Shown here: in pieces, positions 1,551-64,000 of the stretch
Numbering within the stretch: the stretch's first letter is position 1
Layout of the letters: each line of letters begins with the position of its first letter
Source of the DNA: Candidatus Zambryskibacteria bacterium RIFOXYD1_FULL_40_13
GTDB lineage: Bacteria > Patescibacteriota > Minisyncoccia > Phycocordibacterales > DATDWN01
Direction: 5' to 3'
Assembly: GCA_001824295.1 (NCBI GenBank)
Contig: MHWY01000001.1
Coordinates: forward strand, 5,034-69,033
DNA: 64,000 nucleotides
Made by a program: the position numbers and the translations under genes
Notes under the pieces: model-generated
What the model was told of the DNA's origin: nothing
The model's database searches: none
What the model saw: only the letters and a program-made list of their open reading frames with translations

Positions 1551-1596
1551 GACCCGTCCCCTTCTCTGGGGGCGGGCAGTTTTTTAAAAAATTATA
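1551..1596. terminator. GC-rich hairpin plus T-run (bidirectional terminator candidate)
   Basis: cccgtcccc ttctct gggggcggg then cagtttttt; also abuts the 3-prime end of the minus-strand gene at 1592. Confidence 0.55.
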
Positions 1597-2146
1597 GGTG
1601 ATCTGGATGACCGTGGCCGTTAATTTTATTCTGATGTCCAAAAATAATTCTACGAACCTCTTCGGGGTGTCTGACCGATGTCATATTAAACTCCTTACTG
1701 TCTTCACTGGCTGTCTGAACCCGTATGTTACCAAACTTCAATAGTGTAGAGATAAAACCTTGAACCTCAAGGGTAACATCTTGTATTTTATTGAAACGAA
1801 GATTTGAAACTTCCCTATGAAACAAGTTTTTCTGGTCTATTATAATTATTCTCTTCTCGGTGACATACCAAACGTCCAAATAATACTTTGTCCACTCGAC
1901 AAAAAATGATATCCAAAGAAAAAGTATCCATAATGTATACAAAAAAATAAAAACAGCTGACTTGTTTTCCAAAAAACCAGCTTGAAGCAATCCCGGCACA
2001 AACTTTTTTACAAGGACAAGTATGAGGGTAGGTAAAATAGCAACAAACAACAAAACAATGGCCTGCCCAAAGAAAACAATCCAATGTTTTCGTACCTCAA
2101 GTACGACCTTTTCCTCTGGTTCAAGATGTAGTGCTCTGTATAACAT
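1592..2146 (-). CDS. membrane protein with bacterial PH (YdbS/YdbT-like, DUF304) domain
   Basis: two N-terminal TM helices followed by PH-like domain; pattern typical of DUF304 proteins. Confidence 0.5.
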   Translation of the reverse strand: MLYRALHLEPEEKVVLEVRKHWIVFFGQAIVLLFVAILPTLILVLVKKFVPGLLQAGFLENKSAVFIFLYTLWILFLWISFFVEWTKYYLDVWYVTEKRIIIIDQKNLFHREVSNLRFNKIQDVTLEVQGFISTLLKFGNIRVQTASEDSKEFNMTSVRHPEEVRRIIFGHQNKINGHGHPDHL

Positions 2147-2148
2147 AA

Positions 2149-2397
2149 CTATAAATAATTTAGGGACATAAATGACAAAGTAAACAAAAACAGCGAAACA
2201 AAAACAAAAAGTGTTTCAGCAAACAAGACCGTCACACTTTTCATTCCATACTGTGTCCAGTGATAAATCAATATGACCGAGACAATGCAATACATTATGA
2301 AAAATATAACCAGAATAATTAGAAAGACCGGTATTCCAGCAAGAAATGATGTGACAAAGTCTGGGAGAATTGGACCAAGATACTGCGATAGTTGCAT
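2149..2397 (-). CDS. small hydrophobic membrane protein
   Basis: 82 aa, almost entirely hydrophobic, tightly packed after the previous gene. Confidence 0.35.
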   Translation of the reverse strand: MQLSQYLGPILPDFVTSFLAGIPVFLIILVIFFIMYCIVSVILIYHWTQYGMKSVTVLFAETLFVFVSLFLFTLSFMSLNYL

Positions 2398-2424
2398 GTG
2401 TTTATTATAACTCCTTAAATAAGT

Positions 2425-3042
2425 TTATTCCACATTATTGCTCTTGCTGAAATAATTCCTTATAAATTTATTTGAAAGTTTATATCCTATTATAAGCAAA
2501 ATCACCCCACCAATTATTATTGAATATGAATACAAGTATCTGTCTATATTTACATAAGAACTTCCGGCATAATAGCCAAAAAGAAAGAAGAAGAGAGTTC
2601 TGGGCACAGTTATTAGGAAACTAAATCTAATGTAATGAAGAAAATCAATTCTCGCTATTCCCGCCGCTACCTGAACCGCTGTACCAAAACCTGGTGAAAG
2701 TTTCGCCAAAATAAGTGTCTTCCCTCTATGCTTCACAAAGTGGTCCTCTAAAAACTTTTCACTTTTTTCACTATATCCAAATATATGTCCATACTTCTTT
2801 ATCCAAACCGATTTACGCCAGTACATACCAACAAGATAACGAACAGAATCCCCTGTGAGGTCTGCGATAATTAAAACCACATAAGTAGCATAAACATTTA
2901 GTAACCCAAAATGGGCAATAAAACCAGAAACCACTGCTGTAGTAATGGACTCCAGTGTTGCCACTGGAAAAAGAAGTAGATATTTGTATTGTTCCAAGAC
3001 AGACAAAATATCCGACAAAGACATGAACATAGATAAAATCAT
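2425..3042 (-). CDS. DedA/TVP38 family membrane protein
   Basis: multi-TM protein with GKTLILAKLSPGFGTAVQVAAG-like conserved DedA core. Confidence 0.65.
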   Translation of the reverse strand: MILSMFMSLSDILSVLEQYKYLLLFPVATLESITTAVVSGFIAHFGLLNVYATYVVLIIADLTGDSVRYLVGMYWRKSVWIKKYGHIFGYSEKSEKFLEDHFVKHRGKTLILAKLSPGFGTAVQVAAGIARIDFLHYIRFSFLITVPRTLFFFLFGYYAGSSYVNIDRYLYSYSIIIGGVILLIIGYKLSNKFIRNYFSKSNNVE

Positions 3043-3160
3043 GACCCCTTTTTACAAAAAAAGCAATGGCCACACCTGTTCAGTTTGACTTCCTTAATAT
3101 TTTTTGCTTTAATAGTGCTGTCAATCGCCGGCTATGGCCGGTTTTTAGATAGAGATATCA

Positions 3161-3331
3161 CTTAATCACATCTTTTTGGAGCGCGCATAAATTTCTGGTG
3201 AAATTTTGCTCTCTCTCGGCTTCCTTACAGGAACAGTACACCTTTCACATTTAGTAAAATGTTCAAGGTCTTGCGAAATGATAATATCATTTCTCACCCG
3301 CCTGCGAAGTCTCCAAAAAGATGTGATTAAG
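3161..3331 (+). repeat. palindromic structured element family 1, copy 1 (in typA leader)
   Basis: perfect 21-bp inverted repeat cttaatcacatctttttggag / ctccaaaaagatgtgattaag closing a core gcgcgcataaatttctggtgaaattttgctctctctcggct ... cctgcgaagtctc shared with copies at 8658 and 43895. Confidence 0.6.
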
Positions 3332-3349
3332 CTTAAAACAATAAAAGAA

Positions 3350-5161
3350 ATGGAAATACGAAACATAGCCATCATAGCCCATGTAGACCACGGCAAAACC
3401 ATGCTCACTGACGCCCTTATGCGTCAGACTGGCATGGTCACAACCGAAGGCGCCACTATGGATTCAAACGCTCTGGAACAGGAGCGTGGTATTACTATAT
3501 ATGCCAAGAATACATCTATTTACTATCCACCAAAGGAATCAGGGCGAGAGGTTACAAAGATAAATATTGTTGATACTCCGGGGCACTCCGACTTTGGTTC
3601 AGAGGTTGAGAGAGTCCTAAGGTCCATAGACACCGTCCTTCTCCTCGTTGACGCGCAGGAAGGACCAATGCCACAAACCAGATTTGTTTTGAAAAAATCC
3701 CTAGAACTTGGACTGAAGCCGATTGTAATCATCAACAAGATAGACAAGCCAGCCAGTAGGCCAGAGGAGGTCCATGAATTGGTTTTGGAACTATTTCTTG
3801 AACTTGGAGCAAACGACGAGCAACTAGACTTCACAACAGTCTACGCTATCGGACGAGAAGGTATTGCAAAGATGAACCTTGCTGATGAAAACAAGGACTT
3901 AACTCCCCTTCTTGAAACAATATTAAAAGAAGTTCCTCCTGCGTCCGGAGACAAAACATTGCCTGCCAGGCTTCAATCATTTAATCTTGCATACGATAAT
4001 TTTCTTGGAAGATTAGCTGTCTGTAGAGTATATGAAGGTACAATAAAAAACGGGGATGTTGTGTTTGTTAAGCAACATCACAACACATCAAATACTGGAG
4101 ACCAGAGTAAGGTTGTCTCGGGCAAACTAACAAAACTTTTCAGCTTTGAGGGAACAAAGAGATTGGAAATAACAGAAGCTTCTGCTGGAGATATTGTCAT
4201 GATTGCCGGACTTCCAACTGTGTACATTGGAGACACAATTTGTAAAGACGAGAATGCTGATATGCTTCCATCTATCAATATTGATGAACCAACAATTTCT
4301 CTTAACTTTTTGGTTAACGACTCCCCTTTTGCTGGGCGTGAAGGAAAATATGTTACAGGACGACAAATCAGAGAGAGGTTGGAGAAAGAACTGGAAATGA
4401 ATGTGGGCCTCAAAATTGACTGGAACGACGGTGCACAGGTTGAGGGATATACCGTATACGGTCGTGGCGAACTGCATATCGCCATTCTTTTGGAGAACAT
4501 GAGAAGAGAGGGATATGAACTCCAAGTGTCACAACCAAAAGTTATAATCAAGGAAAAAGATGGGGTAATGCTAGAACCTTTTGAGGAAGTGACCGTAGAT
4601 ATCTCCGACGAACTAGCCAGCTCCGTTATCTCACGACTAACAGAAAGGAGAGGAATCCTGATGAACGTTAGACAAACTCATGGACACCAGAGACTTATAT
4701 TTGAAATTCCAACAAGAGGACTTCTTGGTTATCGTGGACAATTCATTGTAGACACAAAAGGTCTCGGTATATTGTCTTCAAGATTTGTTGAATTTCGCGA
4801 ACATGTTGGAGAAATAAAACGCACAACTTATGGCTCTATGGTCTCCATGGAGTCCGGCAAGGTTCTAGCTTTTGCCTTGGACAACTTACAACAAAGAGGA
4901 ACTCTATATGTTGACCCTGGAACAGAGGTATATGTCGGAATGGTTATTGGAAACGTCTCAAAAGGAGCTGATTTGTCAGTAAACCCCACAAAAGGTAAAC
5001 AACTGACAAACATGAGATCAACAAGTTCCGATGGTTCTATATACCTTGCCGCCACATACAAACTTGATATAGAAAAAGCCATGGAAATAATGGCTGAAGA
5101 TGAATACATAGAAATTACTCCAAAGTCAGTCAGACTTCGAAAGAAAACAGTAAGAAAATAA
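3350..5161 (+). CDS. typA: translational GTPase TypA/BipA
   Basis: IRNIAIIAHVDHGKTMLTDAL G1 motif, DTPGHSDF, NKIDK; full-length EF-G-like domain order; start chosen at ATG 3350 just after the repeat (ORF track start 3206 lies inside the repeat). Confidence 0.9.
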   Translation: MEIRNIAIIAHVDHGKTMLTDALMRQTGMVTTEGATMDSNALEQERGITIYAKNTSIYYPPKESGREVTKINIVDTPGHSDFGSEVERVLRSIDTVLLLVDAQEGPMPQTRFVLKKSLELGLKPIVIINKIDKPASRPEEVHELVLELFLELGANDEQLDFTTVYAIGREGIAKMNLADENKDLTPLLETILKEVPPASGDKTLPARLQSFNLAYDNFLGRLAVCRVYEGTIKNGDVVFVKQHHNTSNTGDQSKVVSGKLTKLFSFEGTKRLEITEASAGDIVMIAGLPTVYIGDTICKDENADMLPSINIDEPTISLNFLVNDSPFAGREGKYVTGRQIRERLEKELEMNVGLKIDWNDGAQVEGYTVYGRGELHIAILLENMRREGYELQVSQPKVIIKEKDGVMLEPFEEVTVDISDELASSVISRLTERRGILMNVRQTHGHQRLIFEIPTRGLLGYRGQFIVDTKGLGILSSRFVEFREHVGEIKRTTYGSMVSMESGKVLAFALDNLQQRGTLYVDPGTEVYVGMVIGNVSKGADLSVNPTKGKQLTNMRSTSSDGSIYLAATYKLDIEKAMEIMAEDEYIEITPKSVRLRKKTVRK

Positions 5162-10876: not shown

Positions 10877-13795
10877 TTATTTTAGTAATTTTCTGTAACC
10901 ACAATACTGACAATTAGGGTCACTGCAGTATTTTGTAGTTATTTCTCCACTCCAAACACTATCAACGAGAGATTTTATTTCGGCTTGTACACGACTAATA
11001 TCATCACTCTCAACCGGTAGTGTAACCACTGGACACCTGCCTTTATCATCAGGAGAAATGAAAACGAGTGATGTGTTTATGTTTTTTGATTGATAAAAAG
11101 AATTATTATTTAAAAGCATCTTATAAAAAACTAACTGTCTAAAATAATTGCCCTCACTATTTTGAGTCTCCCCTTTAATAGCAGCAACAGACATCCCCTG
11201 CCTTGTTTTATAATCAAATACAGACACAGCATTTCCATCATCCACAACAACATCAAGTTTGCCGTGTATATTTATAATTATTTTTTTTGCATCATATTTA
11301 ATATCCAAAGGGGCTTCAAACCATCTTTCGGTTGAAACTGAACCATTAGAGCTAAAATGTGAAACTAGTGCCTCTGCTACAAAATGAGCATCTTCTGAAA
11401 GCTCTGCTTTTAATCGCGTTTTATCTTCCTGAGATAAAAGTGATTTATTTATATATTCTGTGGTAGTAGATATTATTGTTTCTTCTGTTTGTTTTGGTGT
11501 ATTCTCTCTTTTTGTCCAAATCCTACGCATAGCCTCATGCATAGCACTGCCTTTTTCTGAAGACAATGATGGTGCCTGTGGCATCTTTAAAATACTTTCA
11601 TACAAAAACTTACTAGGACATTCCAAAAAGTGATTTAGGGCTGTAACAGATAATCCATTTTGAAGTAAAACTTTTTTGGCCTCACTTACCATAAGAGCAT
11701 CGTTTTCATTCTCAGTTATTTTTTCTTTTTTTAAATCACTTAGATGAACATCTTTTCTTTCTAAACAAGTTTCTGTAGTACAATCCTTGTGCAACTCACC
11801 TACAAAACGGAGAGGGGTTAACATTTTACCATCTGATTCTTCTGTTGAGTACAAAATGACCGCATGCTTACGCGCACGAGTTATCGCAACATAAAACAAC
11901 CTTCTTGTATCCCTAATATCATTATCATTTAATCCTCTGCCTGGCAAAACAAAAGATGAGCCGTGTGACCTACCAACCCAACTCTCCTCATTGGCATATG
12001 GTATAAAAACATAATCAAATTCCAAACCCTTAGAACCATGAGCTGTCATAGCTTTAATGGGAAAATCTGGGGCACCAACAGAGACTTTAACCGTTTTGGA
12101 TTCGGCCGATTGTCTGTATTTGAGCATCATATTCATAAGCTCTAGCGGACTTATTATGTCACCGTCACGAGCTAAAGATTCCGCCAGAGTGACAATACCC
12201 TTCCAAACATGAACAAAAGACGGATCTTTGGCGACAAGACCAACAAAACCAGATTCTTCAGCTAAATGAATAATCCCACTGACGGCACCGTCATGAAGCA
12301 TTTTTTCCCTAATACGTGAAATTGCTGGAATAAATGAATGAAGATTTTCCACCTGTCCAGATTTCAATAGATGGATAATTTCCAAAGATTTACCAAAAGA
12401 AACACCCCACATTCCGATAATCAAAGTTTTTGCTAAAAAATCAAAACGAGAAGGGTCGGCTATATATTCAATTAAATCGAAGAAAGCTATGCCCAACGGA
12501 TGATGAAATATATCAAGGCTTCTTTCAGAAGAGACAAGAATATTTTGCGATTCTAAAAGCCTAAGCACTCTCTCTAGCTCCCTATTTCTTCTTGTAATTA
12601 TGGCAACTGTTGCCTCTGGCTCTTTTCTTGAAATATCGCGTAATCTATCTACCAAATAGTGTTCAATGGCGGGAGTGTTTTCTCCAACAAGAATATCAAG
12701 AGGGTGAGCTTTTTCTTTATTACCAGATTTTAGTTTTTTTCTAAGATCAACATATTCACCTTCATCATAATTATTTTCTATCATGGCAAAACTAGCATCT
12801 AATATGCCTTGATGAGAACGATAGTTTGTATCAAGATTTATAACCTTCATACTGGGCCAGTGTTTTTGTAATTTTAGAAAGTTTTCAACAGAAGCACCCT
12901 GAAATCTGTATATGGCCTGTTTTTCATCTCCAACAATAAAAATATTCGGGGTCTCGAAAAATTCAGCAATGAGACTTATAATAAGGTTTTGTGAGTCATT
13001 TGTATCCTGGTGCTCATCAACCAAAAGATAAAGAAACCTTTCCTGTATAAGACGCAAAAGAAGTTCGTCCGTACGCATTGTCACCAAAAGTTCAATGATC
13101 AAATCATCGTAATCTTTCAATTTTGCCTCTTTTTTCTTTTCTTCATATTTTTTATAGACATCGGCAAATAAAAGGGTCTTATCAAGCTTTTCTAGTTTAT
13201 TCAAAGCATCAGCCTTTAACTTTCCTTTTGTTGCCCCTCTTGTGGAAATATTAGATTCATCATTTTTAATATTCTTAATTTCTTTTTTTACAAAATCACG
13301 CACATCTTCCGGAGTTAGGGCGTCTTTTTTTGCATCTGAAATGGTTTTTATTATAGAGGATATGTAAACATCTGGTCGCCCAATAGGACGAAGTGGAGCA
13401 AAAATAGATTCAGAAATAATGTCACGAATAAAAGACTCTTGATCAACATCAGTCATTTGTTTAAAGTCACCAATTCTTAAAAAGTGGTCTGGATATTCAG
13501 ACATCATCGCTGAGGCAAAACTATGAAATGTGTGAATGTAGACATCATGTGCACGGTTTCCAATAATTTCGCGTAATTTTTCACGCATTGCTCTAACCCC
13601 GGCATCTGTATAAGTAATGGCTAATATACCGTGAGCTGGTGTATCTGTTTTACGTAAAATTTCAGCAATACGCAAGGTTAGTATTGTTGTTTTACCGGTC
13701 CCTGGACCAGCAACAACTAAGACAGGACCATCTATTGTATCAACCGCCATCTTCTGCTCTTTATTAAGTTTTGCATACCTTTCCTCAAAAGACAT
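10877..13795 (-). CDS. UvrD/PcrA-family SF1 helicase fused to C-terminal PD-(D/E)xK nuclease with Cys cluster (AddA/RecB-like)
   Basis: Walker A AGPGTGKT, helicase motifs, C-terminal nuclease region ending CSDPNCQYCGYRK. Confidence 0.75.
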   Translation of the reverse strand: MSFEERYAKLNKEQKMAVDTIDGPVLVVAGPGTGKTTILTLRIAEILRKTDTPAHGILAITYTDAGVRAMREKLREIIGNRAHDVYIHTFHSFASAMMSEYPDHFLRIGDFKQMTDVDQESFIRDIISESIFAPLRPIGRPDVYISSIIKTISDAKKDALTPEDVRDFVKKEIKNIKNDESNISTRGATKGKLKADALNKLEKLDKTLLFADVYKKYEEKKKEAKLKDYDDLIIELLVTMRTDELLLRLIQERFLYLLVDEHQDTNDSQNLIISLIAEFFETPNIFIVGDEKQAIYRFQGASVENFLKLQKHWPSMKVINLDTNYRSHQGILDASFAMIENNYDEGEYVDLRKKLKSGNKEKAHPLDILVGENTPAIEHYLVDRLRDISRKEPEATVAIITRRNRELERVLRLLESQNILVSSERSLDIFHHPLGIAFFDLIEYIADPSRFDFLAKTLIIGMWGVSFGKSLEIIHLLKSGQVENLHSFIPAISRIREKMLHDGAVSGIIHLAEESGFVGLVAKDPSFVHVWKGIVTLAESLARDGDIISPLELMNMMLKYRQSAESKTVKVSVGAPDFPIKAMTAHGSKGLEFDYVFIPYANEESWVGRSHGSSFVLPGRGLNDNDIRDTRRLFYVAITRARKHAVILYSTEESDGKMLTPLRFVGELHKDCTTETCLERKDVHLSDLKKEKITENENDALMVSEAKKVLLQNGLSVTALNHFLECPSKFLYESILKMPQAPSLSSEKGSAMHEAMRRIWTKRENTPKQTEETIISTTTEYINKSLLSQEDKTRLKAELSEDAHFVAEALVSHFSSNGSVSTERWFEAPLDIKYDAKKIIINIHGKLDVVVDDGNAVSVFDYKTRQGMSVAAIKGETQNSEGNYFRQLVFYKMLLNNNSFYQSKNINTSLVFISPDDKGRCPVVTLPVESDDISRVQAEIKSLVDSVWSGEITTKYCSDPNCQYCGYRKLLK

Positions 13796-52714: not shown

Positions 52715-53830
52715 ATGTTCAAAGTGAACCCGGCAAGCGTCAACGACCTCCTGCACCTCGTGGCAACGGGCGCTCCCGTGACCATGACCTCCCATCCTGG
52801 GAACGCATCACTCTACAAACTCTCCCTGTGGGCTTGTGGAATACCTGAGCACCTCTGGGATATCACCTGCTGTAAAGCAGACGCCAACAATTGGCCGATG
52901 TTCCGGCTGGTCGAGGGGCGTGCTGAACTCCTGATTGACGAAGGGTTGTATCAGAGAATCATGACTGAGACAAACCCAAGCAAAAGGTTCGTCACCGCCT
53001 ATCAAGAAACCACAAGCGGAGAACGCCTTGGACGCACCCATGTCAGAGCTTGTGAGGCTTGTTTTCCGAAAGCAATCTCGTCGTGCTCGCGCCTCATCCT
53101 TTCGGAAAGCAACAAAGCCAAGGAGATGTTTTTGTACTTGGCCGAAACCAAGAGGGACGAGGTATTCACACGCAGAATCGACCACGAGGGCGTGATGACG
53201 CCGGTCTGCTCGCACGGCCAGAGCTCGGTTGAGGTTGTCGAGTCATTTTTTAATGTTCTCGGCGAACTGGACCACCTGCTCTTCAGTGACGAGCAAATCA
53301 CCACATTGGGTGGAATCTGCTACGACGGCGTGATGGTTCCCCTCGCCACCATGCTCTGCCAGTATTGGCAGATGGGTCGAATCGACCGCTACGACATCTC
53401 TGGCCCCGACATGATTCACTACGCATCACAAAACGGGTTTCAGGGTGATATGTCACGCATGCTCGCCCATCTTCGGAAATGGAATCCGAAACTTGTTCCT
53501 CCCACCATTGTTACCCGGATGTTTCCCGGAACTGTGGCGAGAATCGGGCACATAAGGAATCATGTTTCCGAGGAAGTCATGACGAGAAAGGTACAAGCCC
53601 TTAGAAGTCCTCCAGCCGGGGAGTGGAAGAAGAGGCTCTGGGAAGTGGCCAAGGAAGATGAGGCCAGCTGGCCAATACAGGTCAAGCCAGCGCAGGACCA
53701 CTACTTCTCCCAACACGACTTGCTGGCCCTCGGGAAGGAGCTTTTGGTTGATGAGTACTGGAGAGAGATTCCGCTTGAGAATATGCGTGAAACTCTCGCC
53801 AGAGCCAACTCCCTACTTCGCTTGAGGTAG
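52715..53830 (+). CDS. hypothetical 371-aa protein (GC-rich island 11)
   Basis: AAGGAG SD 7 nt before ATG; terminator aaccccac...gtggggtt + T at 53843-53880; no confident domain. Confidence 0.5.
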   Translation: MFKVNPASVNDLLHLVATGAPVTMTSHPGNASLYKLSLWACGIPEHLWDITCCKADANNWPMFRLVEGRAELLIDEGLYQRIMTETNPSKRFVTAYQETTSGERLGRTHVRACEACFPKAISSCSRLILSESNKAKEMFLYLAETKRDEVFTRRIDHEGVMTPVCSHGQSSVEVVESFFNVLGELDHLLFSDEQITTLGGICYDGVMVPLATMLCQYWQMGRIDRYDISGPDMIHYASQNGFQGDMSRMLAHLRKWNPKLVPPTIVTRMFPGTVARIGHIRNHVSEEVMTRKVQALRSPPAGEWKKRLWEVAKEDEASWPIQVKPAQDHYFSQHDLLALGKELLVDEYWREIPLENMRETLARANSLLRLR

Positions 53831-54069
53831 TGCGGGCATGGCTTAACCCCACTGACTGAACATCGGTGGGGTTATTTTGTATATGTGTGGATGTTTATGT
53901 TATACTCTACTTATGTGCAAAAGCTTACAGCAAAACATAGCGTTCTTCTTTTTTGGCTATTTTCTCGAAGGCTGATGCTTGCGCTGTAGAAATCTCCAAA
54001 ATACAACCCAAACACCAGCCTTCGAGGCTGGTGTTTACTTTTTATCAAATTTTAACTAGACTAAACAAC

Positions 54070-55266
54070 ATGACAAATGAACAAAACAAGACCCAAGAAG
54101 AGTTGTATGGGGATGCCTCCCTCTCCCGAAAAATATATGAAACCCCCTCAGAGAAAGAAGAAAAGCTCTTAGAAGAGTTAAACCATAGAACAGATACCGA
54201 AAGTTCAAGAATGAAGCAATACTTGGCAATGAAAGACCTTTCTAGAACCCCAGAAAGTCCGCTTTTTGAAATGATAGAGCGGGTAACAAACATCCCGATT
54301 CTGAAAAACTTTGACCTAATAAAAGTGCCAGAAATAGTAACTGCAGAGGTTACATTTGACCTGTTCAATTTCCCTTTAAATCACCCAGCAAGAAGTAAGT
54401 CGGACACATACTATCTCAACGAAAATTATATTTTGAGGACACATTGTACAGTAATGTGGTACTACTACCTCGCCCTAAAAGAGGTCAGGGAGCAGTTAAA
54501 AAATGGCCAGGCTATAGGTGTTCTGTCTCACGGCAAGGTGTACAGAAAGGACGAGATAGACAGAAACCACATGAACATCTTCCACCAAATTGATGGGCTA
54601 TATTTGTGTAAGACAAATAAACACGTCATTACCCAGGAAGACCTAAAAGATGTCTTGTCTGGAATAGCAAAATCAGTCTTCGGCGAAAATGTTAAGTACA
54701 GATTCAACGATGACACATTCCCCTACACCAACCAAAGTATCGAGATGGAAATAGACAAGGATGGCAACTGGATAGAAGTTTTAGGAGCAGGGGTTGTGCA
54801 ACCAGCAGTTTTGGAAAAGCTTGGCGTTGATTCAAAAGAGTACAATGGCTGGGCATTCGGCTTCGGTCTTGAAAGGCTTGCTATTATAAGCATGGAACTC
54901 CCCGATATTCGCCTACTTTGGTCAGAAGACCCAAGGGTTACAAAGCAGTTAAAACTTGGCAACAAATTTGTAGAAGTAAGCAAGTATCCACCAATAGTCC
55001 GAGATATCTCGTTCGTTGTAAAAAACGACTTTGTGCCAAATGATTACTTTGACCTGGTCAGAGAAACAGCTCCAAATTTGGTAGAGGAGGTACACCTTCT
55101 TGATAAATATGAGAATGCTGAAAAGTTTGGAGAGAACATGGTCAGTTATGCGTTCCGAATCACCTATCGTTCAACCGAGAGAACCCTGACTTCGGAAGAA
55201 ATTGATGCAGTACACAAAAAGCTAGAAAAGGTCACATCAGAGCTATTTAGTGCTACGGTTCGTTAA
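54070..55266 (+). CDS. pheS: phenylalanyl-tRNA synthetase alpha-type catalytic subunit with C-terminal FDX-ACB domain (monomeric, mitochondrial-like architecture)
   Basis: FPYTNQSIEMEI and GWAFGFGLERLAI class II motifs; C-terminal SKYPPIVRDISFVV...RITYRS FDX-ACB-like domain; start taken at ATG 54070 after a terminator-like hairpin. Confidence 0.75.
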   Translation: MTNEQNKTQEELYGDASLSRKIYETPSEKEEKLLEELNHRTDTESSRMKQYLAMKDLSRTPESPLFEMIERVTNIPILKNFDLIKVPEIVTAEVTFDLFNFPLNHPARSKSDTYYLNENYILRTHCTVMWYYYLALKEVREQLKNGQAIGVLSHGKVYRKDEIDRNHMNIFHQIDGLYLCKTNKHVITQEDLKDVLSGIAKSVFGENVKYRFNDDTFPYTNQSIEMEIDKDGNWIEVLGAGVVQPAVLEKLGVDSKEYNGWAFGFGLERLAIISMELPDIRLLWSEDPRVTKQLKLGNKFVEVSKYPPIVRDISFVVKNDFVPNDYFDLVRETAPNLVEEVHLLDKYENAEKFGENMVSYAFRITYRSTERTLTSEEIDAVHKKLEKVTSELFSATVR

Positions 55267-56525: not shown

Positions 56526-57230
56526 ATGGAACCAAAAAAAATAAATTCAAAAAAATATCTGTTCTCATTTATTATTACGGCAATCATATTTGCTACTGCG
56601 ATTTACCTTAGCAATTATTTTAGTCAGAAAAAACTTGATGAGATTAGAAACATTCAAGACAAAATATCAATTGATATCCTTTCATCAGAAACTCAATTTT
56701 CTTTGCTTGAGGAATCTCTTTGTAAAGACCTTGGAACTGAAACCCTATCCTCCGAGCTTGGTGAACTTGAAAACAAGCTAGCTTACACAGAAAACATGCG
56801 TGGTGTAAATGACCCAGAAGTTACAACTCTGAAGAGATACTATTCCCTCTTAGAAATAAAGGATTACCTATTAATGAACAAGATAAGTGAGAAATGTAAC
56901 AAAACCCCACTTTCAATAATATATTTTTATTCGACAAATAATGACTGTCTAGACTGCGAAAAGGAAGGTTATGTACTGACAAAACTTAGAGAAACATACC
57001 CTGACCTACGAATATACTCTTTTGACTACAACCTAGACCTATCTGCCGTCAGAACTCTTATATCTATAAATAAAACAAGGAATGAGCTTCCTGCGCTCAT
57101 TATAAAAGATAAGACATATTATGGATTTCAAAGTATAGAAGATTTAGAGAAAAACGTTCCCGAGCTCCGTTTGCTTAGGAATACAAAGACCGCAACGAGT
57201 ACAACAGCTACAAGCACGAAGAAGAATTAA
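56526..57230 (+). CDS. membrane-anchored hypothetical protein with CxxC motif (possible thioredoxin-like)
   Basis: N-terminal TM anchor; NDCLDCEKEG motif; Thr/Ser-rich tail. Confidence 0.45.
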   Translation: MEPKKINSKKYLFSFIITAIIFATAIYLSNYFSQKKLDEIRNIQDKISIDILSSETQFSLLEESLCKDLGTETLSSELGELENKLAYTENMRGVNDPEVTTLKRYYSLLEIKDYLLMNKISEKCNKTPLSIIYFYSTNNDCLDCEKEGYVLTKLRETYPDLRIYSFDYNLDLSAVRTLISINKTRNELPALIIKDKTYYGFQSIEDLEKNVPELRLLRNTKTATSTTATSTKKN

Positions 57231-57649
57231 TAATTTTTAATGTATTTATTCACCCTCCATCTTCTACCATTGCCCCTGTTTAAATTTTTATAGAAAGGAG
57301 TAAGAGCGTGACAGTTTGGACACAATAACCTCAGATTATCTTCTCTATTATTTTCTGAATTTCCATCCACATGTTCTATTTCTAAAGGGACCACCCCTGT
57401 AATAGGATGTTTTTTCGTCCAACCACAAACAGAACATTTGTTATTAAATTTTTCTAACAGATACTGCCTTAAATGCACAGAAATGTTTCTTGACGTTATT
57501 CCTATATTTCCTTGTATTTGTCCTTTTTTCCAAGATTCAACCCAGTGTCTGTGCTGGTATTCCATCTGGCAAGAATTGGAGCAAAACTTTATTTTGTGTC
57601 TGATTTTCAATTCTAAATTACAACCAATACAAAACCTTACTTTTTCCAT
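57227..57649 (-). CDS. HNH endonuclease
   Basis: CSVCGW...EIEHVDGNSENNREDNLRLLCPNCH HNH motif with zinc-binding Cys pairs. Confidence 0.7.
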   Translation of the reverse strand: MEKVRFCIGCNLELKIRHKIKFCSNSCQMEYQHRHWVESWKKGQIQGNIGITSRNISVHLRQYLLEKFNNKCSVCGWTKKHPITGVVPLEIEHVDGNSENNREDNLRLLCPNCHALTPFYKNLNRGNGRRWRVNKYIKNY

Positions 57650-57835
57650 ATCTTAATAGTATACCACAAGCCACTAGTCCACAGTGGTACAAGATACAAA
57701 AACAACCCCTTGTAAGAGATTGTTTTCTTGAGTGTTTATATGATTCCGCTCGAACTTACTTTATCAAAAATTCGTGAGTAATGAAATGTTTGCAATCTCG
57801 GCAAATGAATTCCGTCACGGCTCGCTTCGAGCTAC

Positions 57836-58027
57836 GCCCAACCCTGTTTTTGATTCTTAGTTTTTTTGGCGGGACATTTCTTTGAATTCACATTCCTATT
57901 GGTATCAAACAGGGTTGGGCTCCACTCTTTCGCTCTCCGTCCGCCCTCGCCTCGCCACCGTATTCATTCTAGATTTTTTGGCGCGGATTTCTTTTGATTT
58001 GTATGGCGGTGGTGGGGCTCGGGGCGG
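57836..58027 (+). other. tandem pair of hairpin modules with conserved loop and different stems, upstream of vWA gene
   Basis: unit 1 stem gcccaaccctgtttttgat / atcaaacagggttgggc; unit 2 stem ccgccctcgcctcgccaccg / cggtggtggggctcggggcgg; loops share ttct(t)agattttttggcg(g)gacatttctttgaatt. Confidence 0.45.
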
Positions 58028-58081
58028 GTAATTTTACGCTAAATTATGACATTGTAATATGTTTTAATAATACGATATACT

Positions 58082-60349
58082 ATGGATATGGAGGGGATAA
58101 AATTAAACCAAGAAATACCTGAAAATAAGTCTACTGGGACTCTAGAACAGGTATATCAAGCTCTAAATCCAAACAGAGAGAAACAAATTCTTGCCAAATT
58201 TACTCCAGAACAGCAAGAAGAAATTAGGCAGAAACAACAAATACTCTCCTCTTTGGCTTACTTTGTAGGTAAGGACTTCCGCATACCAGTTGAATTAAAT
58301 GAGCCAGGGGGCGGTTGGTACTGGAATTTTAAAGATAATGAAATAAGAATTGATCCAAAAGATCTTCTGGAAAAATCAATGGATTATTTGAGATTTGTTA
58401 TCTCTCATGAAGGAGGACATAGGAGAATAAGTAGGACAGATTTCATACCCTTAGAAGAATGGCAACAGCCAGGATTCTCTTTCATGACGAATGCTATAGA
58501 AGATCCAAGGGATAATAATTTCGTAGCTGAAAGTTATCCAAAATTCAGAGAACAAATGAGTTTGGCATATGAACAAGACTTAGATTTTGAGGCAAAAGCT
58601 AAAGAAAAAGCCGATCAAAAACTTGGATATAAACCTAGATTTATGCAGGCTGGATTTGAATATATAAAACAGTGGTTTAGAGAAACCAAAGGGCAGGATT
58701 TTGAAATTTCTCCTGATTTACCAGAAGAGGTTAGGGTTGTGGTTGAGGCAACCCTAGAGTCAGCTCAAGATTCTTGGCTTCGATATCCATCACGACAAGA
58801 AGCAGATAAAAGTGAGGAATTGATCAGGAAATATGCCGAACTTTCATACAAAATCAATCGCGACTTTGTCTGGCCAGAATTTAAAAAGTTAATTGATGCT
58901 GATATGGAAGATCAGAAAATGGAAGAACTTTTGAAAGATATGCAAAAAAATAAGGACGGAGGGGAAGAAAAAAACGATGGAAAAATAAAATTGCCACAAG
59001 AACTGAAAGACAAACTAACTCCAGAAGAACAACAAACTCTTGAAGAGGCTATTAAAAAAGCAATTGAGCAAGCTAAAAAAGAACAGCAAGAGGCTAAAGA
59101 AAAAGCAGAAAAAGATATTAAGAAACAAGGCGAAGCTACGACAGAAAAGGGAGAAAAAACTGAAGGCACTCCCGAGCCAGACGCAGATGGTACACCCCAA
59201 GATATAGAAGGAGAAAAATCGGGAGGGGGTAAGCCAATAAATCTTGACTCTCTGTCAGAAGAATTGAAACAAAAAATTAAGGATTATATTTATTCACTTC
59301 CAGAAGAAGAACAAAGAGAAATTAAAGAACAAGCAGAAAAAGTCTTTAAAGAATTCGAGGATGCTTTGAGTGAAGAACTGCAAGGTAAACTCTCAGATAA
59401 TCCAGATAAAAAAGCCGAGAGAGAATCAAAAGATAAACCTAAAGAAGAACTAGAAAAGGAAGAAAAAACCGAAAAGGGCAGACCAGAAGTCGATGAAGAG
59501 GAATTGAGAAAATATAAAGATAGGGTCGCAAAGGAACTCAAAAAAGATGAAAATTTATATGAACATATGCGACAAGAAGTTTTGCCTCTTATAGATAAAC
59601 TCGAAAATGAACTGCGAGAAATATTCGTTGCTCGTCGAGCTCAGGGGTGGAAAAGTGGTTTTACTACAGGCAAGAGAATTGACATAAAAAGAAGAATTCA
59701 AGAAAAAGCCAAATCAGTCCATGCAATGGAAAGCAAAGCATGGCAAAAAAGAGAACTACCAAAAGAAAAGGACTATGCCATTTCTATGTTGGTTGATTTG
59801 TCAGGTTCAATGTCAAACGGAAATAAAATACGAGAGACATTCAAGGCTGTCATTGTCTTGTCAGAGGTATTAAATCGTTTGTCTATTAATCTTGAAGTAC
59901 TTGGTTTTAATGATCGAATTTATGAGTATCAGGATTTCGGAGAACAGATGTCAAAACTTATACGAGAACATATGGGGGGTATGCTTGCCGAAGTAAATGA
60001 TACGAGTGATACAGGTAAGGCTAGATGGAATGATGATGGGTGGGCATTGGAACAAGCATCTGATAGATTGGCTCGACAAAAAGCGGACCAAAAATTCTTG
60101 ATAGTTATGTCTGACGGTACACCCGAAGAATCTTCCATGCACCCAAGAGCCAAATATGAACTTGGTAAGATGATTAAAAAAGTTCTAGAGGAAAGTGATG
60201 TTCGCCTTGTGGGTCTTGGTATCGGTCAAGGAACTGAGCATGTAAGTAGATATTATCCAAACAGTATTGCAAATGTGAAGGTAGAAGAAATGGCAGAAAA
60301 ATTAGCTGATCTTATAAGAGAAGTCATTGCTAATTACGAAAATTTTTAG
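58082..60349 (+). CDS. DUF2201-like protein: N-terminal putative metallopeptidase (HEGGH) domain, long Lys/Glu-rich linker, C-terminal vWA domain
   Basis: ISHEGGHRR HExxH-like motif; vWA MIDAS MLVDLSGSM and MSDGTPEE; architecture typical of vWA partners of MoxR AAA_5 ATPases. Confidence 0.65.
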   Translation: MDMEGIKLNQEIPENKSTGTLEQVYQALNPNREKQILAKFTPEQQEEIRQKQQILSSLAYFVGKDFRIPVELNEPGGGWYWNFKDNEIRIDPKDLLEKSMDYLRFVISHEGGHRRISRTDFIPLEEWQQPGFSFMTNAIEDPRDNNFVAESYPKFREQMSLAYEQDLDFEAKAKEKADQKLGYKPRFMQAGFEYIKQWFRETKGQDFEISPDLPEEVRVVVEATLESAQDSWLRYPSRQEADKSEELIRKYAELSYKINRDFVWPEFKKLIDADMEDQKMEELLKDMQKNKDGGEEKNDGKIKLPQELKDKLTPEEQQTLEEAIKKAIEQAKKEQQEAKEKAEKDIKKQGEATTEKGEKTEGTPEPDADGTPQDIEGEKSGGGKPINLDSLSEELKQKIKDYIYSLPEEEQREIKEQAEKVFKEFEDALSEELQGKLSDNPDKKAERESKDKPKEELEKEEKTEKGRPEVDEEELRKYKDRVAKELKKDENLYEHMRQEVLPLIDKLENELREIFVARRAQGWKSGFTTGKRIDIKRRIQEKAKSVHAMESKAWQKRELPKEKDYAISMLVDLSGSMSNGNKIRETFKAVIVLSEVLNRLSINLEVLGFNDRIYEYQDFGEQMSKLIREHMGGMLAEVNDTSDTGKARWNDDGWALEQASDRLARQKADQKFLIVMSDGTPEESSMHPRAKYELGKMIKKVLEESDVRLVGLGIGQGTEHVSRYYPNSIANVKVEEMAEKLADLIREVIANYENF

Positions 60350-60363
60350 TATAAATAAGCTGT

Positions 60364-60777
60364 ATGAAAGAGACTGAAAATAAAGAATTTATAGATTTTC
60401 TGAAGGTGGCTTTTGGTCAAAAAGAGGTTGGATTGATTATGGCTAAAAATAGAGATGAATTAGGTGATTTTTCTAGAATAATGGATAATGAGGGATTTAA
60501 GAGATCAGATAATATTTTGGATTTATTAAATTCTCCAAAAATGTATCTCTCTGTTGATGAAAATATGAATAAAGATGTTTATGATTTTATTGTTCAATAC
60601 CCAACAGGTCAAGTGGAAATATTTGATAATACAGCAATGAAATCGAACACATTTTCACCAAACCATACTAATAGTTGTGTAGTTATTCTTGTTCTAAAAG
60701 AAGACTTGAGCAAAATTCAAGAAAAAGGTTGGGATATTTTGTCTCTATGTGGCGTAACATATCAATCACAAATTTAA
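60364..60777 (+). CDS. hypothetical 137-aa protein between vWA and AAA_5 genes
   Basis: same strand and tight spacing as flanking genes; no recognised domain. Confidence 0.4.
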   Translation: MKETENKEFIDFLKVAFGQKEVGLIMAKNRDELGDFSRIMDNEGFKRSDNILDLLNSPKMYLSVDENMNKDVYDFIVQYPTGQVEIFDNTAMKSNTFSPNHTNSCVVILVLKEDLSKIQEKGWDILSLCGVTYQSQI

Positions 60778-60788
60778 TTTTTTAAATT

Positions 60789-62960
60789 ATGAAATTCGGC
60801 GAATCACAATTTAATGCTCTGAATACAGAAAATCCTAACAAAAATGAAGGGTTGAAAAACCCTGAGCCTCTAGATAATACTGACCCAATAGCCGAAGACG
60901 AGGATTCAATGTCATATTTAGGAGTTACACTAGAAAAAGCAAAATCTGGACACGATCAATTTGTACCAAAAAGGGAGCAGTATGGAGATTTCATAAATGA
61001 TAAAGAAGTGGCATTACCACTTCAAAGGGATGTGGCGGTTGCCTTCATGAGTGGAGAACCACTTCTCGTAGACGGAGGCACTTCTCTTGGTAAAACTACT
61101 ACAATTAGGAAAATGGCAAGCGAGCTCGGTTGGGAGGTCCACTATGCAAACTTAAATGGTGCGACGGATGTGGAAGATCTCATGGGTAGATATATCCCTA
61201 ATCCTCACAAGAATAAACCTGAAGATCCGGAATATATTTTTGCGGATGGAAAAGTAACCAGTGGTTTGAGACAAGAAGAAGGTAAGGTTAAGGTTATTAT
61301 ATTGGATGAATTTAACGCTTCGGCTCCAAACATTCTCATTCGCCTCCATGAAGTGCTGGACTCTCTAGAAAGAGGTGGAGACGTTATATTATCGGAAGAT
61401 GCTTCGGAAGCGGTGGCAGTAAACAAAGGAGTGACTAAAATCGTTGCACTGATGAACCCTCCAGGTAAAGGATACTTTGGACGAGAACCATTAGACCCTG
61501 CTCAACTTCGTAGATGGGTATATAAAAAACTTCCGTCTGAATTACCTGCAAATACATTCTCTTATGCAACAGACTCTCTTTTTGGATTGGCTAGTGAACA
61601 ACAGAACATAACTCCTGATATGTTCTTGCGAGCCAGAGGGGAAGGTTTAACACATGAACAACTACAAGATATTCCTGGTCTTCCTGAGGTCTTGGAGAAA
61701 TACAAAGAGTTCCATAAGGCCTCAAAAGAACTGTTAAAAAACAGAAAGATTGCTGAAGATCAACCACAACCTTTTACTTATGATGATCGTATGGAACCTC
61801 GCAGAGTCAGAGATTTTATTTTGAGATTTTATAATGGAGATCTCAATGAGACCATGCAACAAGCTCTCCGTTATTACTATGCAAATAAACTAGAAAGTGA
61901 CGCTGATAGAAAAAAGCTTGGCGAGCTCATACGATTAGTTGAATATAAAGCAAAACCTGGAGAGTCGAAAAGGAAAGGTTTGGAAGTGGGAGTCTCTAAA
62001 GAAAAAGCTGGTCTAATAAATGATATAGAAAAACTAAAAGCTGAAGTTGAAGCAAGTGGAAAATTGCCAAAAACAGAGTCTAAGGATTCACCAGATACTC
62101 TGTTAAAGAAAATGGAGTTAGCCAAAGAAATGCTCGGTAAGGATTTCATGGGCCCAGAAAAAATTGAGAAAGCTTTTGGTATTAAATTAGCCACAGAAGA
62201 TATTCCAGATATGCCGTATTCAATTGAGGATCTTGAGCGAGCCAAAGAAAACGGAGAAATGCTTGTGTTAGGGGTAGACAAAGATTCAAGCGGTAAGCTT
62301 CTTACCATAGCTCATATGCTTGAAATGATTCCTGAACTAAAGGATCCGACCACAGGAGAAAAGATTAAAGTTTTATATGGTCAAGAAAAACCTGGTTCTA
62401 AATTGGCTGATGATTGTTGGTATAGAAATGAGCCATTTTATACAGGTGTTAATAAAGATGGTACCATTATCCCAGATGCCCATCCTCGTCTCAGATGGAG
62501 ATTAACATCAAAAGCCCCCCTTCCTGAATCAATAGCCACTTCTTATGGCGGTACCGCTGAAAAATCTACTAACTATGTTGAACAAACAAAGATTTTAAGA
62601 GAATATCTTACGTCTGTAGGGTCTCTCTCTGAAGATGAGGCGAAAGAATCTTCCGATAAAGTTCTTACAGAAATATCAAAACTCATGGAGTCTGACTGGA
62701 AAGAAGCGGCTAAAAGACTTTCTGAACTTACAATAAACAAAAATCACAGAAGACTTCCTCCAGAAGTTATTTACGATATATTGCTTTCCATAAAAGGAAA
62801 TGACGAGCGAATTATGGAACAAGTATATGATTGGACAGCGGCCCTTTCGTCTGGTGGCGAGCTGGTGTCTGTCGGCGGCGCTTACCGTGGCGGTGTGGGC
62901 GTCAGCGCCGACGGGCCCGACGGTCGCGATGGCCCTCTTGGTGTCGTTTCTCTCCGCTAG
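60789..62960 (+). CDS. AAA_5 (MoxR/CbbQ-like) ATPase with long uncharacterised C-terminal region
   Basis: Walker A DGGTSLGKTTT, Walker B VIILDEFN, sensor region; C-terminal about 300 aa paralogous to next ORF; GC-rich 3-prime tail. Confidence 0.7.
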   Translation: MKFGESQFNALNTENPNKNEGLKNPEPLDNTDPIAEDEDSMSYLGVTLEKAKSGHDQFVPKREQYGDFINDKEVALPLQRDVAVAFMSGEPLLVDGGTSLGKTTTIRKMASELGWEVHYANLNGATDVEDLMGRYIPNPHKNKPEDPEYIFADGKVTSGLRQEEGKVKVIILDEFNASAPNILIRLHEVLDSLERGGDVILSEDASEAVAVNKGVTKIVALMNPPGKGYFGREPLDPAQLRRWVYKKLPSELPANTFSYATDSLFGLASEQQNITPDMFLRARGEGLTHEQLQDIPGLPEVLEKYKEFHKASKELLKNRKIAEDQPQPFTYDDRMEPRRVRDFILRFYNGDLNETMQQALRYYYANKLESDADRKKLGELIRLVEYKAKPGESKRKGLEVGVSKEKAGLINDIEKLKAEVEASGKLPKTESKDSPDTLLKKMELAKEMLGKDFMGPEKIEKAFGIKLATEDIPDMPYSIEDLERAKENGEMLVLGVDKDSSGKLLTIAHMLEMIPELKDPTTGEKIKVLYGQEKPGSKLADDCWYRNEPFYTGVNKDGTIIPDAHPRLRWRLTSKAPLPESIATSYGGTAEKSTNYVEQTKILREYLTSVGSLSEDEAKESSDKVLTEISKLMESDWKEAAKRLSELTINKNHRRLPPEVIYDILLSIKGNDERIMEQVYDWTAALSSGGELVSVGGAYRGGVGVSADGPDGRDGPLGVVSLR

Positions 62961-63057
62961 TTCTTCTCTCTTGAAACTTTGACCTTTTCTTCTTTGATTC
63001 TTTGGTATTCCTCGCGATAATTTTTTGTGTTATACTAGCTTTAAATAGACAATAAAT

Positions 63058-64000
63058 ATGGAAGGTATACCTACAACTCCAAGTAAAGAAAAAAGTCTTG
63101 AAAAAGATGAGTTTTCAGGTTCCAAGACTCTCGAAGAAATAGCTAGAATACAAAAAGGTCGAGACCTCAGCGCTTTGAGTGTGAAGGAACTCTCTTCTAT
63201 AAGAGAAAAGTACATCAGATTGAAACAAGAGTTAAATATTGGTGGAAAGGAAGTGAAAGAAGGAATGGAAACTTCCTATGAGCAAGCTCAAGAGATTATG
63301 GGAGAAAGTTTTTATGGGACAGAAGAAATAAAGAACACTTTTGGATTTGAATTTCCGAAAGAAAAAATACCCCATGTTCCGTATACTCCCGAAGTGCTTG
63401 AAAAAGCAAAGGAAAATGGAGAGATGTTGGTGTTACGTGTAGAAAGCGATGGATCGGGCTCTTCTATAACCATGCAAAGAATGAATGAAATCATGCAGAC
63501 CATTCTGGAGAAGGATAGTGAGGAAGAACAGGAAAAGTTGCTTTATGATACTAATTGGTATCACGAGGAAGATTTCTTTAAAAATGCTTCCTTAAAGACT
63601 GAGTGGAGAATAGTCGGCAAAGAATTCATACCAGACTCAACGAGTAAGAATTATATAGAACAGACTAAGATATTACGAGACTATCTCTTTGGTTTAGAGT
63701 CACTCTCTGAAGAAGAGAAATCAGAATGTACCGATGAGCTACTTGAAGGACTTCAAAAAATGCTTGATGACGATTATGATAAAAATTGGCAAGAGGTTGC
63801 CAAGAAACTTTCAGAGCTTTTGGTTAATAAAAATCACAGACGAATTCCAGCAGAAATATTATATGATTGGGTTTTACAGTTTAGAAATAGAAAAGATCGA
63901 GGTATTTTGGAAGAAAATTATGACTGGTCAAACACCCTTTCGTCTGATGGCGGGCTGGTGTATGTCGGCTACGCTGACCGTGGCGGTGTGGACGTCGGCG
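63058..64000 (+). CDS. paralog of the C-terminal module of the AAA_5 protein (partial, runs off window)
   Basis: shared blocks AKENGEMLVL, YIEQTKILRDYL, NKNHRRIPAEI and near-identical GC-rich 3-prime tail; ORF open to window end. Confidence 0.5.
   Translation, partial: MEGIPTTPSKEKSLEKDEFSGSKTLEEIARIQKGRDLSALSVKELSSIREKYIRLKQELNIGGKEVKEGMETSYEQAQEIMGESFYGTEEIKNTFGFEFPKEKIPHVPYTPEVLEKAKENGEMLVLRVESDGSGSSITMQRMNEIMQTILEKDSEEEQEKLLYDTNWYHEEDFFKNASLKTEWRIVGKEFIPDSTSKNYIEQTKILRDYLFGLESLSEEEKSECTDELLEGLQKMLDDDYDKNWQEVAKKLSELLVNKNHRRIPAEILYDWVLQFRNRKDRGILEENYDWSNTLSSDGGLVYVGYADRGGVDVG

Follow-up and report, generated by a model that had tools for sequence, protein, structure and literature searches.

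A probable diversity-generating retroelement target region in a Patescibacteria genome, with one of its two targets a Midasin/CobS-like ATPase in a conserved operon

The locus described here lies at the end of a 64,000-nt stretch of DNA from Candidatus Zambryskibacteria bacterium RIFOXYD1_FULL_40_13, which was analysed at its full length and is referred to below as the window. Very probably it is the half of a chromosomal diversity-generating retroelement (DGR) that holds the targets, in a Patescibacteria (candidate phyla radiation, CPR; Zambryskibacteria-like) genome. There are two target genes, one of which encodes a Midasin/CobS-like ATPase in a conserved operon. To our knowledge, no prokaryotic system other than DGRs hypermutates proteins in a targeted way, and DGRs are unusually abundant in CPR bacteria. 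In mutagenic retrohoming, the RNA of a template repeat (TR) is copied by an error-prone reverse transcriptase (RT) into cDNA with A-to-N changes, and this cDNA replaces a variable repeat (VR). A preliminary description of the window, made from its letters alone, had proposed a five-gene NTPase-vWA conflict locus; it missed the retroelement because the TR and the Avd and RT genes lie past the window end.

All five open reading frames (ORFs) of that description were present. The first, on the minus strand (57227-57649), encodes a 140-aa protein that was confirmed to carry an HNH domain (Pfam HNH, E=8.5e-6, over the cut-off; PHROG HNH, from phage families, E=2e-18). The other four are on the plus strand. 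The second (58082-60349) encodes a 755-aa protein with the architecture that had been proposed for it, namely a gluzincin-like metallopeptidase domain (aa 1-285) with the motif HEGGH (aa 109-113), a K/E-rich linker (aa ~271-520) and a C-terminal CobT/Midasin-type von Willebrand factor A (vWA) domain (aa ~528-755) whose metal ion-dependent adhesion site (MIDAS) motif, DLSGS, begins at aa 572. Among Pfam families the vWA domain matched CobT_C best (E=2e-17), and K, E, D and Q make up 53% of residues 271-520 in the linker. The third ORF (60364-60777), whose place is always between the vWA and ATPase genes, encodes a 137-aa protein that belongs to its own conserved family.

The fourth ORF (60789-62960) is DGR target 1 and encodes a 723-aa protein that was correctly recognised as an AAA_5 ATPase (E=1.4e-10). 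Its Midasin/CobS-like AAA_5 domain (aa ~59-246), in which the Walker A (GGTSLGKT) and Walker B (VIILDE) motifs are intact, is followed by a conserved helical middle region and by a C-terminal module (aa 431-723; window 62079-62957) with a predicted C-type-lectin (CLec)/formylglycine-generating enzyme (FGE) fold. The fifth ORF (63058-64000), DGR target 2, runs off the window, which holds the 5' 943 nt of a gene for a 331-aa stand-alone paralogue of the CLec module; the complete 331-aa ORF was found on a longer contig, L001, at 12270-13265. Over 297 aa, its translation was 40% identical to ATPase residues 415-705 (BLASTP, E=8e-56), and by this alignment the paralogy, which had already been proposed, is far above chance. 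None of the five proteins contains a hydrophobic segment compatible with a transmembrane (TM) helix or a signal peptide.

A repeat search identified three copies of a 118-nt sequence. VR1 (62839-62956, plus strand) forms the last 40 codons of the ATPase gene and encodes a peptide ending in AALSSGGELVSVGGAYRGGVGVSADGPDGRDGPLGVVSLR directly before the stop codon, while VR2 (plus strand, from 63932 to the extrapolated position 64049) forms the last 40 codons of the 331-aa paralogue gene. The third copy, the TR, is intergenic and lies on the plus strand between the 331-aa gene and avd, at ~64386-64503 in extrapolated window coordinates. All of the differences between the TR and VR1 were located at TR adenines (19/19, hypergeometric P=4e-17), as were 17 of the 20 differences between the TR and VR2 (P=7e-12); of the three that were not, two lie at the repeat's 5' edge. 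The same adenine-specific pattern was observed in the related loci L008, L009, L010 and L014 (P=1e-11 to 1e-18). The TR encodes an Asn(AAC)-rich peptide, TTLSSDGKLVYVGNANRNGVNVNANRPDNRNGNLGVVSLRS, and close homologues of the ATPase (74-92% identity) vary mainly at the codons that are AAC (Asn) in the TR. The two VRs and the TR share an invariant 3' end, CTTGGTGTCGTTTCTCTCCG, on the side where the IMH and IMH* elements of a DGR would be expected to mark the boundary; past it, the VRs continue into CTA(G/A)TTCTTCTCTCT and the TR into AAGTCACTCTCG. Differences between TR and VR that are nearly confined to TR adenines are the defining signature of a DGR.

The comparison of related strains provided a further view of this process. 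The TR of L101, the closest relative with a different TR, carries six non-adenine changes relative to the TR of the window lineage, and all six are found in both L101 VRs. This demonstrates that TR-to-VR transfer has occurred. The remaining strain differences in VR1 were concentrated at TR adenines both in L101 (17/26, P=1e-8) and in L102 (13/19, P=1e-6). As the L102 ATPase gene is only 87% identical outside the VR, it makes a poor near-isogenic comparison, and the case for activity therefore draws on the adenine enrichment together with the concerted changes in L101.

Contigs reaching past base 64000 were identified in public assemblies by an exact match to the 723-aa protein. Window 57730-64000 is 100% identical to L001 6942-13212, and on seven contigs with an identical ATPase, genes with bAvd and RVT_1 domains lie 3' of the fifth ORF, which places the TR, Avd and RT 0.4-1.2 kb past the window end. 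The Avd gene (minus strand, extrapolated ~64539-64925; L001 13751-14138) encodes 128 aa and matched Pfam bAvd with E=2e-17 (64.1 bits against a cut-off of 40). The RT gene (plus strand, extrapolated ~64926-65951) encodes 341 aa and matched RVT_1 over the curated cut-off (E=2e-23). The RT sequence contains LGNLTSQIFANIY and YADDF, and its LGNLTSQ agrees with (I/L/V)GxxxSQ, a motif typical of DGR RTs.

The arrangement of the avd and RT genes was similar among the loci inspected. The strand of avd is opposite to that of the RT and the targets in five of six loci (L001, L008, L010, L014 and L101), and the sixth, L009, has a plus-strand ORF without a Pfam match at the avd position. The start codons of avd and RT are either back to back, as in L001, L014 and L101, or separated by at most ~190 nt (19 nt in L010 and 191 nt in L008). 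Such an opposed arrangement implies either promoters inside the coding sequence or unusual transcription. A non-coding stretch of ~930 nt follows 3' of the RT (L001 15164-16091) and contains duplicated hairpins and nested inverted repeats (15374-15403/15986-16015 and 15579-15601/15909-15931 in L001), without an Rfam match. In L103 (ERZ909580 contig; genes at 1478-4756 and downstream), the ATPase-CLec protein is the same as homologue P0002 and is accompanied by the 331-aa paralogue, with helicase, cupin and PMSR genes downstream where Avd and RT would be expected; either the local DGR core has been lost from this cassette, or the assembly is chimeric.

The C-terminal 300 aa of the ATPase had been described as having no recognisable fold. 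At the level of sequence this stands, as no family match was obtained; the structure model of the module (pLDDT 94) instead presented an FGE/C-type-lectin fold with a helical elaboration. The structural relatives of the module, with the value of each match in brackets, were CarF (8.4), Treponema denticola TvpA (8.1), PvdO (7.8), SenA (7.2), SUMF2 (7.0), EgtB and OvoA (6-7), phage BPP-1 Mtd (5.7) and Thermus TaqVP (5.0), followed by animal C-type lectins with lower values. The C-type-lectin/FGE fold is the scaffold that DGRs normally diversify. According to the structure model, the duplicated module is the CLec variable domain of a DGR, with both VRs located in the predicted CLec/FGE-fold domain.

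This module is not the only one carried by ATPases of this kind. The conserved N-terminal 420 residues of the ATPase (up to 77% identity) are joined to interchangeable C-termini, which include several other CLec-like VR tails, for example '...CGVRPAVRI', and one type with a tandem-repeat domain (DUF7721). Other C-terminal modules on the same N-terminus were observed in homologues P0078, P0100, P0103, P0112, P0120 and P0084-P0092. The recognition end of the ATPase looks modular and swappable. Separately, in the 331-aa paralogue of L004, a contig that is otherwise identical, 57 clustered substitutions were found in the non-VR part of the gene (the equivalent of L001 12452-12929, window ~63240-63717), which suggests mosaic recombination in this gene.

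The N-terminal domain of the 755-aa protein had been named a DUF2201-like metallopeptidase, and of this assignment the peptidase part was retained. Neither DUF2201 nor DUF2201_N matched the protein (E<=0.1) or any of its 59 homologues (E<=0.05). A zincin fold is supported by structure, with HEGGH and E140/D141 invariant, and the domain shows the gluzincin-like features of an HExxH on the active-site helix after a small β-sheet and a third ligand on the next helix. The profile matches of the vWA domain were to CobT (7e-15, 6e-14), the Midasin MIDAS domain (2.5e-9) and NorD. For the ATPase, the best solved relative by profile was Midasin (E=1.2e-23), which agrees with the 'Midasin' annotation of Wu et al. 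An identity as cobaltochelatase CobS/CobT was considered and rejected: in the 59 homologues only CobT_C, the vWA part, matched and the CobT N-terminal domain was not found, the CobS equivalog TIGR01650 reached 15.9 bits against a cut-off of 558, and neither CobN nor a cobalamin context was present in any locus inspected.

For the 137-aa protein, which had been left without an assignment, no match was obtained to any Pfam, NCBIfam, PHROG or PADLOC family or, by profile, to any PDB entry. Its 51 homologues, all of ~135 aa and sharing the signature DVYDFIVQYPTGQVEIFD, were likewise without a Pfam domain. In some assemblies (L002 6313-8614; L007 194-2461), the counterpart of the vWA gene at window 58082-60349 is broken into two ORFs inside the K/E-rich low-complexity linker, which could be a frameshift or a length polymorphism.

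The conservation of the operon was surveyed with the zincin domain as an anchor and one genome per species. A relative was encoded by 109 genomes and 80 loci were retrieved; the counts given below cover the 47 species-level loci that continue for 9 kb or more downstream from the vWA start. The surveyed loci were from many lineages of Patescibacteria, except for several contigs labelled as other taxa. The ATPase gene was found beside the vWA gene in all 47 loci, and the 137-aa gene in 35, being missed only in a divergent subfamily. An RT or Avd gene was present in 38 loci (81%), and an adenine-biased TR/VR pair in 34. All but one of these 34 pairs (33) have their VR inside the module, in most cases where the ATPase gene ends 3'; the exception, in L064, is situated in another part of the locus and appears spurious. 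A large serine recombinase was found in five loci, and a homologue of the window HNH in one (L055, a different 325-aa HNH), the four generic HNH-motif matches of the survey being antisense fragments inside other genes. Loci inspected one by one were consistent with this picture. The operon of zincin-linker-vWA, ~136-aa protein and AAA_5-CLec genes is conserved, and its linkage to a DGR is ~80%.

The cassette, which extends from the vWA gene through the RT and the ~930 nt of non-coding sequence, occupies 8,850 nt between perfect 300-nt inverted repeats. The arm on the vWA side (window 57730-58029; L001 6942-7241) is 100% complementary to the second arm, which follows the non-coding stretch past the window end (L001 16092-16391; extrapolated ~66880-67179). 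Each arm contains two long GC-rich stem-loops (fold z = -3.1), and an Rfam search of the cassette, the repeat and the whole window matched only a tRNA. The repeats are absent from L008, L009, L010, L014, L101 and L023, and they are therefore not part of the conserved system. Relative to the flank with the HNH, glycosyltransferase and phenylalanyl-tRNA synthetase (PheRS) genes, the cassette points one way in the window, L003 and L102 and the opposite way in L001, L002, L004, L005 and L006. Because of this difference in orientation, the HNH gene adjoins the vWA gene in the window and the RT end elsewhere. A perfect 300-nt inverted repeat exceeds the short-read length, so that the presence of both orientations is weak evidence for a recombinase-controlled invertible segment of the Gin/Cin/Hin kind and may reflect a real inversion or an arbitrary choice by the assembler. 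No gene or promoter was identified that an inversion of the cassette would switch.

The HNH gene had been counted as a component of the locus, and it did not withstand this comparison. It is outside the repeat-bounded cassette, at the opposite (RT) end in other assemblies from the same organism, and has a homologue in only one of the surveyed loci; it is an unrelated neighbour. The possibility of an IscB-like RNA-guided nuclease was also rejected, as only the HNH domain matched (36 bits against a cut-off of 175) in a protein of 140 aa. The preliminary description had further asked whether the locus sits in a defence island, and this was not borne out. The flanks contain housekeeping genes (PheRS, glycosyltransferase, ribosomal proteins and EF-Ts), together with tRNA-Thr and a large serine recombinase, and PADLOC reported no system, only generic HNH matches (HEase/ZorE HNH domain) and a weak match of the ATPase to mad8 (E=2e-5).

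Two further features were observed in this part of the window. The PheRS gene (53953-55266, plus strand) combines a tRNA-synt_2d class II core and an FDX-ACB anticodon-binding domain in one chain of ~400 aa, an architecture which we take to be of the monomeric, mitochondrial type and not the usual bacterial alpha2-beta2 type. Upstream of it, a 371-aa ORF without a Pfam match (52715-53830, plus strand) has a GC content of 47% against ~38%, the richest part of this end of the window.

On the other flank, in L001 and L002, a tRNA-Thr(TGT) abuts the gene of a 531-aa large (not small) serine recombinase (L001 5114-6944). In the orientation of the window, this gene would be 3' of the RT on the same strand, which is the synteny of L101, L009 and L014. 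Perfect 147-nt inverted repeats flank the body of the recombinase gene, whose ORF is open either way (531 vs 526 aa). Large serine recombinases were found just downstream of the RT in L101, L009 and L014, as well as in several surveyed loci. This distribution hints that the cassette travels on a serine-recombinase island.

A CLec domain in fusion with an AAA ATPase is the commonest DGR target architecture in CPR, according to a passage of PMC10907252 citing Paul 2017. One class of CPR DGR targets ('UVR4') matches the Midasin AAA domain (PMC5758913), and the CPR clade-2 targets are without recognisable TM or other domains (Roux 2021, PMC8144416). The present locus resembles these CPR AAA-ATPase-CLec DGRs in its host group, in the N-terminal P-loop/Midasin-type AAA domain with a C-terminal VR, and in the adenine-specific TR/VR differences. 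It further shares with them the Avd and RT genes, several targets per cassette and targets without a TM segment or signal peptide. No essential difference was observed at the window locus, and by its host group, AAA domain and VR position it belongs to this class, which has already been described. Wu et al. 2018 left the fold of the 'UVR4'/Midasin-ATPase targets open (PMC5758913). What is added here is a confident assignment of the VR-bearing module to the FGE/CLec fold on the basis of its structure model, and the operon context with the zincin-vWA and ~136-aa proteins. In the literature searched, which did not cover Paul 2017 itself, the zincin-vWA and 137-aa partners were not found described for CPR DGRs, and on account of this coverage we make no claim of priority for them.

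The locus was also compared with the ternary vWA-MoxR systems that contain the VMAP component and a DGR-diversified FGE-sulfatase (FGS)/CLec domain (Kaur et al. 2020, PMC7159879; Dore et al. 2024, PMC10907252). In both, a MoxR-clade AAA+ ATPase adjoins a MIDAS vWA protein, a third small or unknown component and a peptidase domain are present, and a CLec/FGS domain is hypermutated by an adjacent DGR; a sensor-transducer-effector logic has been proposed. The wiring is different. Here the ATPase and a free paralogue carry the CLec domain, whereas in those systems effector or FGS domains are C-terminal on the vWA component, and the vWA domain here is itself C-terminal. The peptidase of the present locus is a zincin that makes up the N-terminal part of the vWA protein, whereas theirs is a trypsin or caspase on VMAP, a component whose N-terminus is usually a trypsin, caspase, cyclase or EAD domain. 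The hosts also differ, being ultra-small CPR in the present case and multicellular cyanobacteria, actinobacteria or gammaproteobacteria in the other. The 137-aa protein gave no match to a VMAP domain and no VMAP-like gene was seen in the neighbourhoods, the presence of VMAP models in the libraries used being unchecked. TIR, the EAD adaptor and other effector domains of vWA-MoxR systems were not found at the locus.

Among better-known machines, the locus was compared with Midasin (Rea1/Mdn1) and the AAA+/MIDAS pairs CobS-CobT and NorQ-NorD; the ATPase is nearest to Midasin, and the vWA domain has relatives in CobT, Midasin and NorD. The MIDAS domain here is preceded by a long charged low-complexity linker, as it is by a D/E-rich region in Midasin. 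In contrast to Midasin, the components here are split into two polypeptides with a single AAA module each, and in contrast to CobS-CobT there is neither a CobN nor a CobT N-terminal domain. The zincin and the DGR-diversified lectin domain are present in none of these three. The module also differs from the classical DGR targets, Mtd of Bordetella phage BPP-1 and TvpA of Treponema denticola, in its large helical insertion or extension and in its fusion to an ATPase. In addition, the present locus is cellular and chromosomal, its protein is apparently cytoplasmic, and avd is on the strand opposite to the RT.

From these relatives, a mechanism can be proposed. By analogy with Midasin, CobS-CobT, NorQ-NorD and the vWA-MoxR systems, the ATPase would assemble into a MoxR/Midasin-like ring with hypervariable CLec sites on display. 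The vWA protein may dock on this ring through its MIDAS domain while tethered by the long charged linker, as in CobS-CobT, NorQ-NorD and Midasin. The capture of a ligand by a CLec variant could then be coupled, through ATP hydrolysis, to remodelling of the ligand and possibly to its cleavage by the zincin domain, and the free 331-aa CLec protein would represent a second, independently diversified receptor or repertoire. As the proteins have no signal peptides or TM segments, recognition is probably intracellular, and a DGR-programmed sensor of invaders or of host and partner molecules is a better fit than a surface adhesin would be. The locus may serve in conflict or defence. A bolder version, which we put forward tentatively and consider doubtful as a whole, is that the cassette is a DGR-programmed, intracellular, antibody-like recognition machine. 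It would be a split 'mini-Midasin', in which an AAA+ ring with CLec receptors and a MIDAS partner with a zincin protease respond with ATP-driven proteolysis or remodelling when one CLec variant binds a foreign protein of phage origin or from the episymbiont's host; in this lineage, it would also lie on a segment that is invertible or mobilised by the serine recombinase.

Several observations weigh against the DGR interpretation or against its functional extension. The TR, Avd and RT are outside the window and were placed from contigs that are 100% identical to it over 57730-64000. The consensus VRs are identical in the seven contigs with an identical ATPase, a comparison that is by construction uninformative on hypervariation within a population. 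Gene order and analogy suggest that the ATPase, the vWA protein, the zincin domain and the 137-aa protein are physically coupled. Approximately 19% of the related loci are without an RT or Avd within 10 kb; these include L011, in which the CLec module is the same, and L013, which has a different C-terminus and is placed among ATP-synthase, PGI and TruB genes. Furthermore, sequence identity among CPR lineages is 60-77% in the ATPase and vWA parts, which is unusually high for a conflict system. Given this conservation and the loci without a DGR, the trio may have a core function that is not defence.

A core function of this kind is the basis of a serious rival, that of a chaperone-type machine with a diversified adaptor. 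In this explanation, the genes encode a housekeeping trio of the MoxR/CobS-CobT type that acts as a chaperone or in metal insertion to mature a CPR enzyme or complex, and the CLec add-on broadens the recognition of substrates or adaptors. The nearest relatives of the vWA domain are indeed cobaltochelatase CobT and NorD, the ATPase weakly matches CobS, the degree of identity across lineages is typical of core functions, and both L013 and L011 hold the trio without a DGR in housekeeping neighbourhoods. Nevertheless, we consider this explanation unlikely, since an RT or Avd is adjacent in most of the loci and the VR is on the ATPase itself. The exchange of the ATPase C-terminus among several CLec classes is a pattern typical of recognition arms races, the CobN, CobT N-terminal and cobalamin contexts are missing along with a CobS score far under its cut-off, and the known chelatase or NorD partners do not have an invariant zincin active site.

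The second rival, which appears to us more improbable still, is that the cassette is cargo of a mobile element or prophage in which the DGR diversifies a receptor-binding or host-attachment protein, as in BPP-1 Mtd or the proposed adhesins of CPR episymbiosis. The tRNA-Thr and large serine recombinase beside the cassette, and the recombinases downstream of the RT in related loci, are consistent with mobility, as are the ICE-like (integrative and conjugative element-like) context of L010 and a faint Phage_rep_O match in L014. Host attachment has been proposed for CPR DGRs, again in a passage of PMC10907252 citing Paul 2017. Against this, relatives of the vWA gene were found in only four of 2.9 million IMG/VR contigs, compared with 109 species-level genomes, and no phage structural genes were present in any locus inspected. 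The targets, one of them fused to a cytoplasmic-type AAA+ ATPase and all without a signal peptide or TM segment, are also unlike a tail fibre or surface adhesin.

The weakest rival is the one closest to the preliminary description, a five-gene NTPase-vWA anti-phage locus with an HNH effector and a duplicated module acting as a novel sensor or effector unrelated to any retroelement; the HNH gene is adjacent and divergently oriented in the window, its domain resembles the ZorE and homing-endonuclease models in PADLOC and vWA-MoxR conflict systems exist (PMC7159879), but the gene is outside the cassette and on the RT side in five assemblies, is nearly absent from related loci and forms part of no PADLOC system, and the module demonstrably bears the VRs of a DGR, so that we regard this explanation as highly improbable. 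What remains of the original proposal is the conserved AAA_5/vWA pair with an appended, duplicated recognition module, while the membership of the HNH gene and the role of the module as an unknown effector are abandoned in favour of a CLec domain diversified by a DGR.

The DGR interpretation has a practical consequence for the annotation of incomplete sequences: where a duplicated C-terminal module with a G/R/N-rich tail is found at a sequence edge, a TR and an RT should be looked for just outside. For the biology of CPR bacteria, the function of their mostly cytoplasmic-looking DGR targets is still an open question (Roux 2021, PMC8144416). The results present the commonest type of CPR DGR target with what the structure model indicates to be a genuine FGE/C-type-lectin variable domain. 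They further place this target in an operon whose other members, a zincin-MIDAS partner and a small protein, are tightly conserved with it, and which a DGR accompanies in ~80% of the species-level genomes that contain it. This provides a concrete and testable model, that of a variable receptor working together with an ATPase and a protease, and it would give CPR DGRs a mechanistic link to the vWA-MoxR 'antigen sensor' systems found in multicellular bacteria. If the recognition-machine interpretation is true, DGR-based 'antigen sensor' immunity would extend from multicellular bacteria to genome-reduced episymbionts, with a different wiring in which the receptor is on the ATPase and the protease is on the vWA protein.

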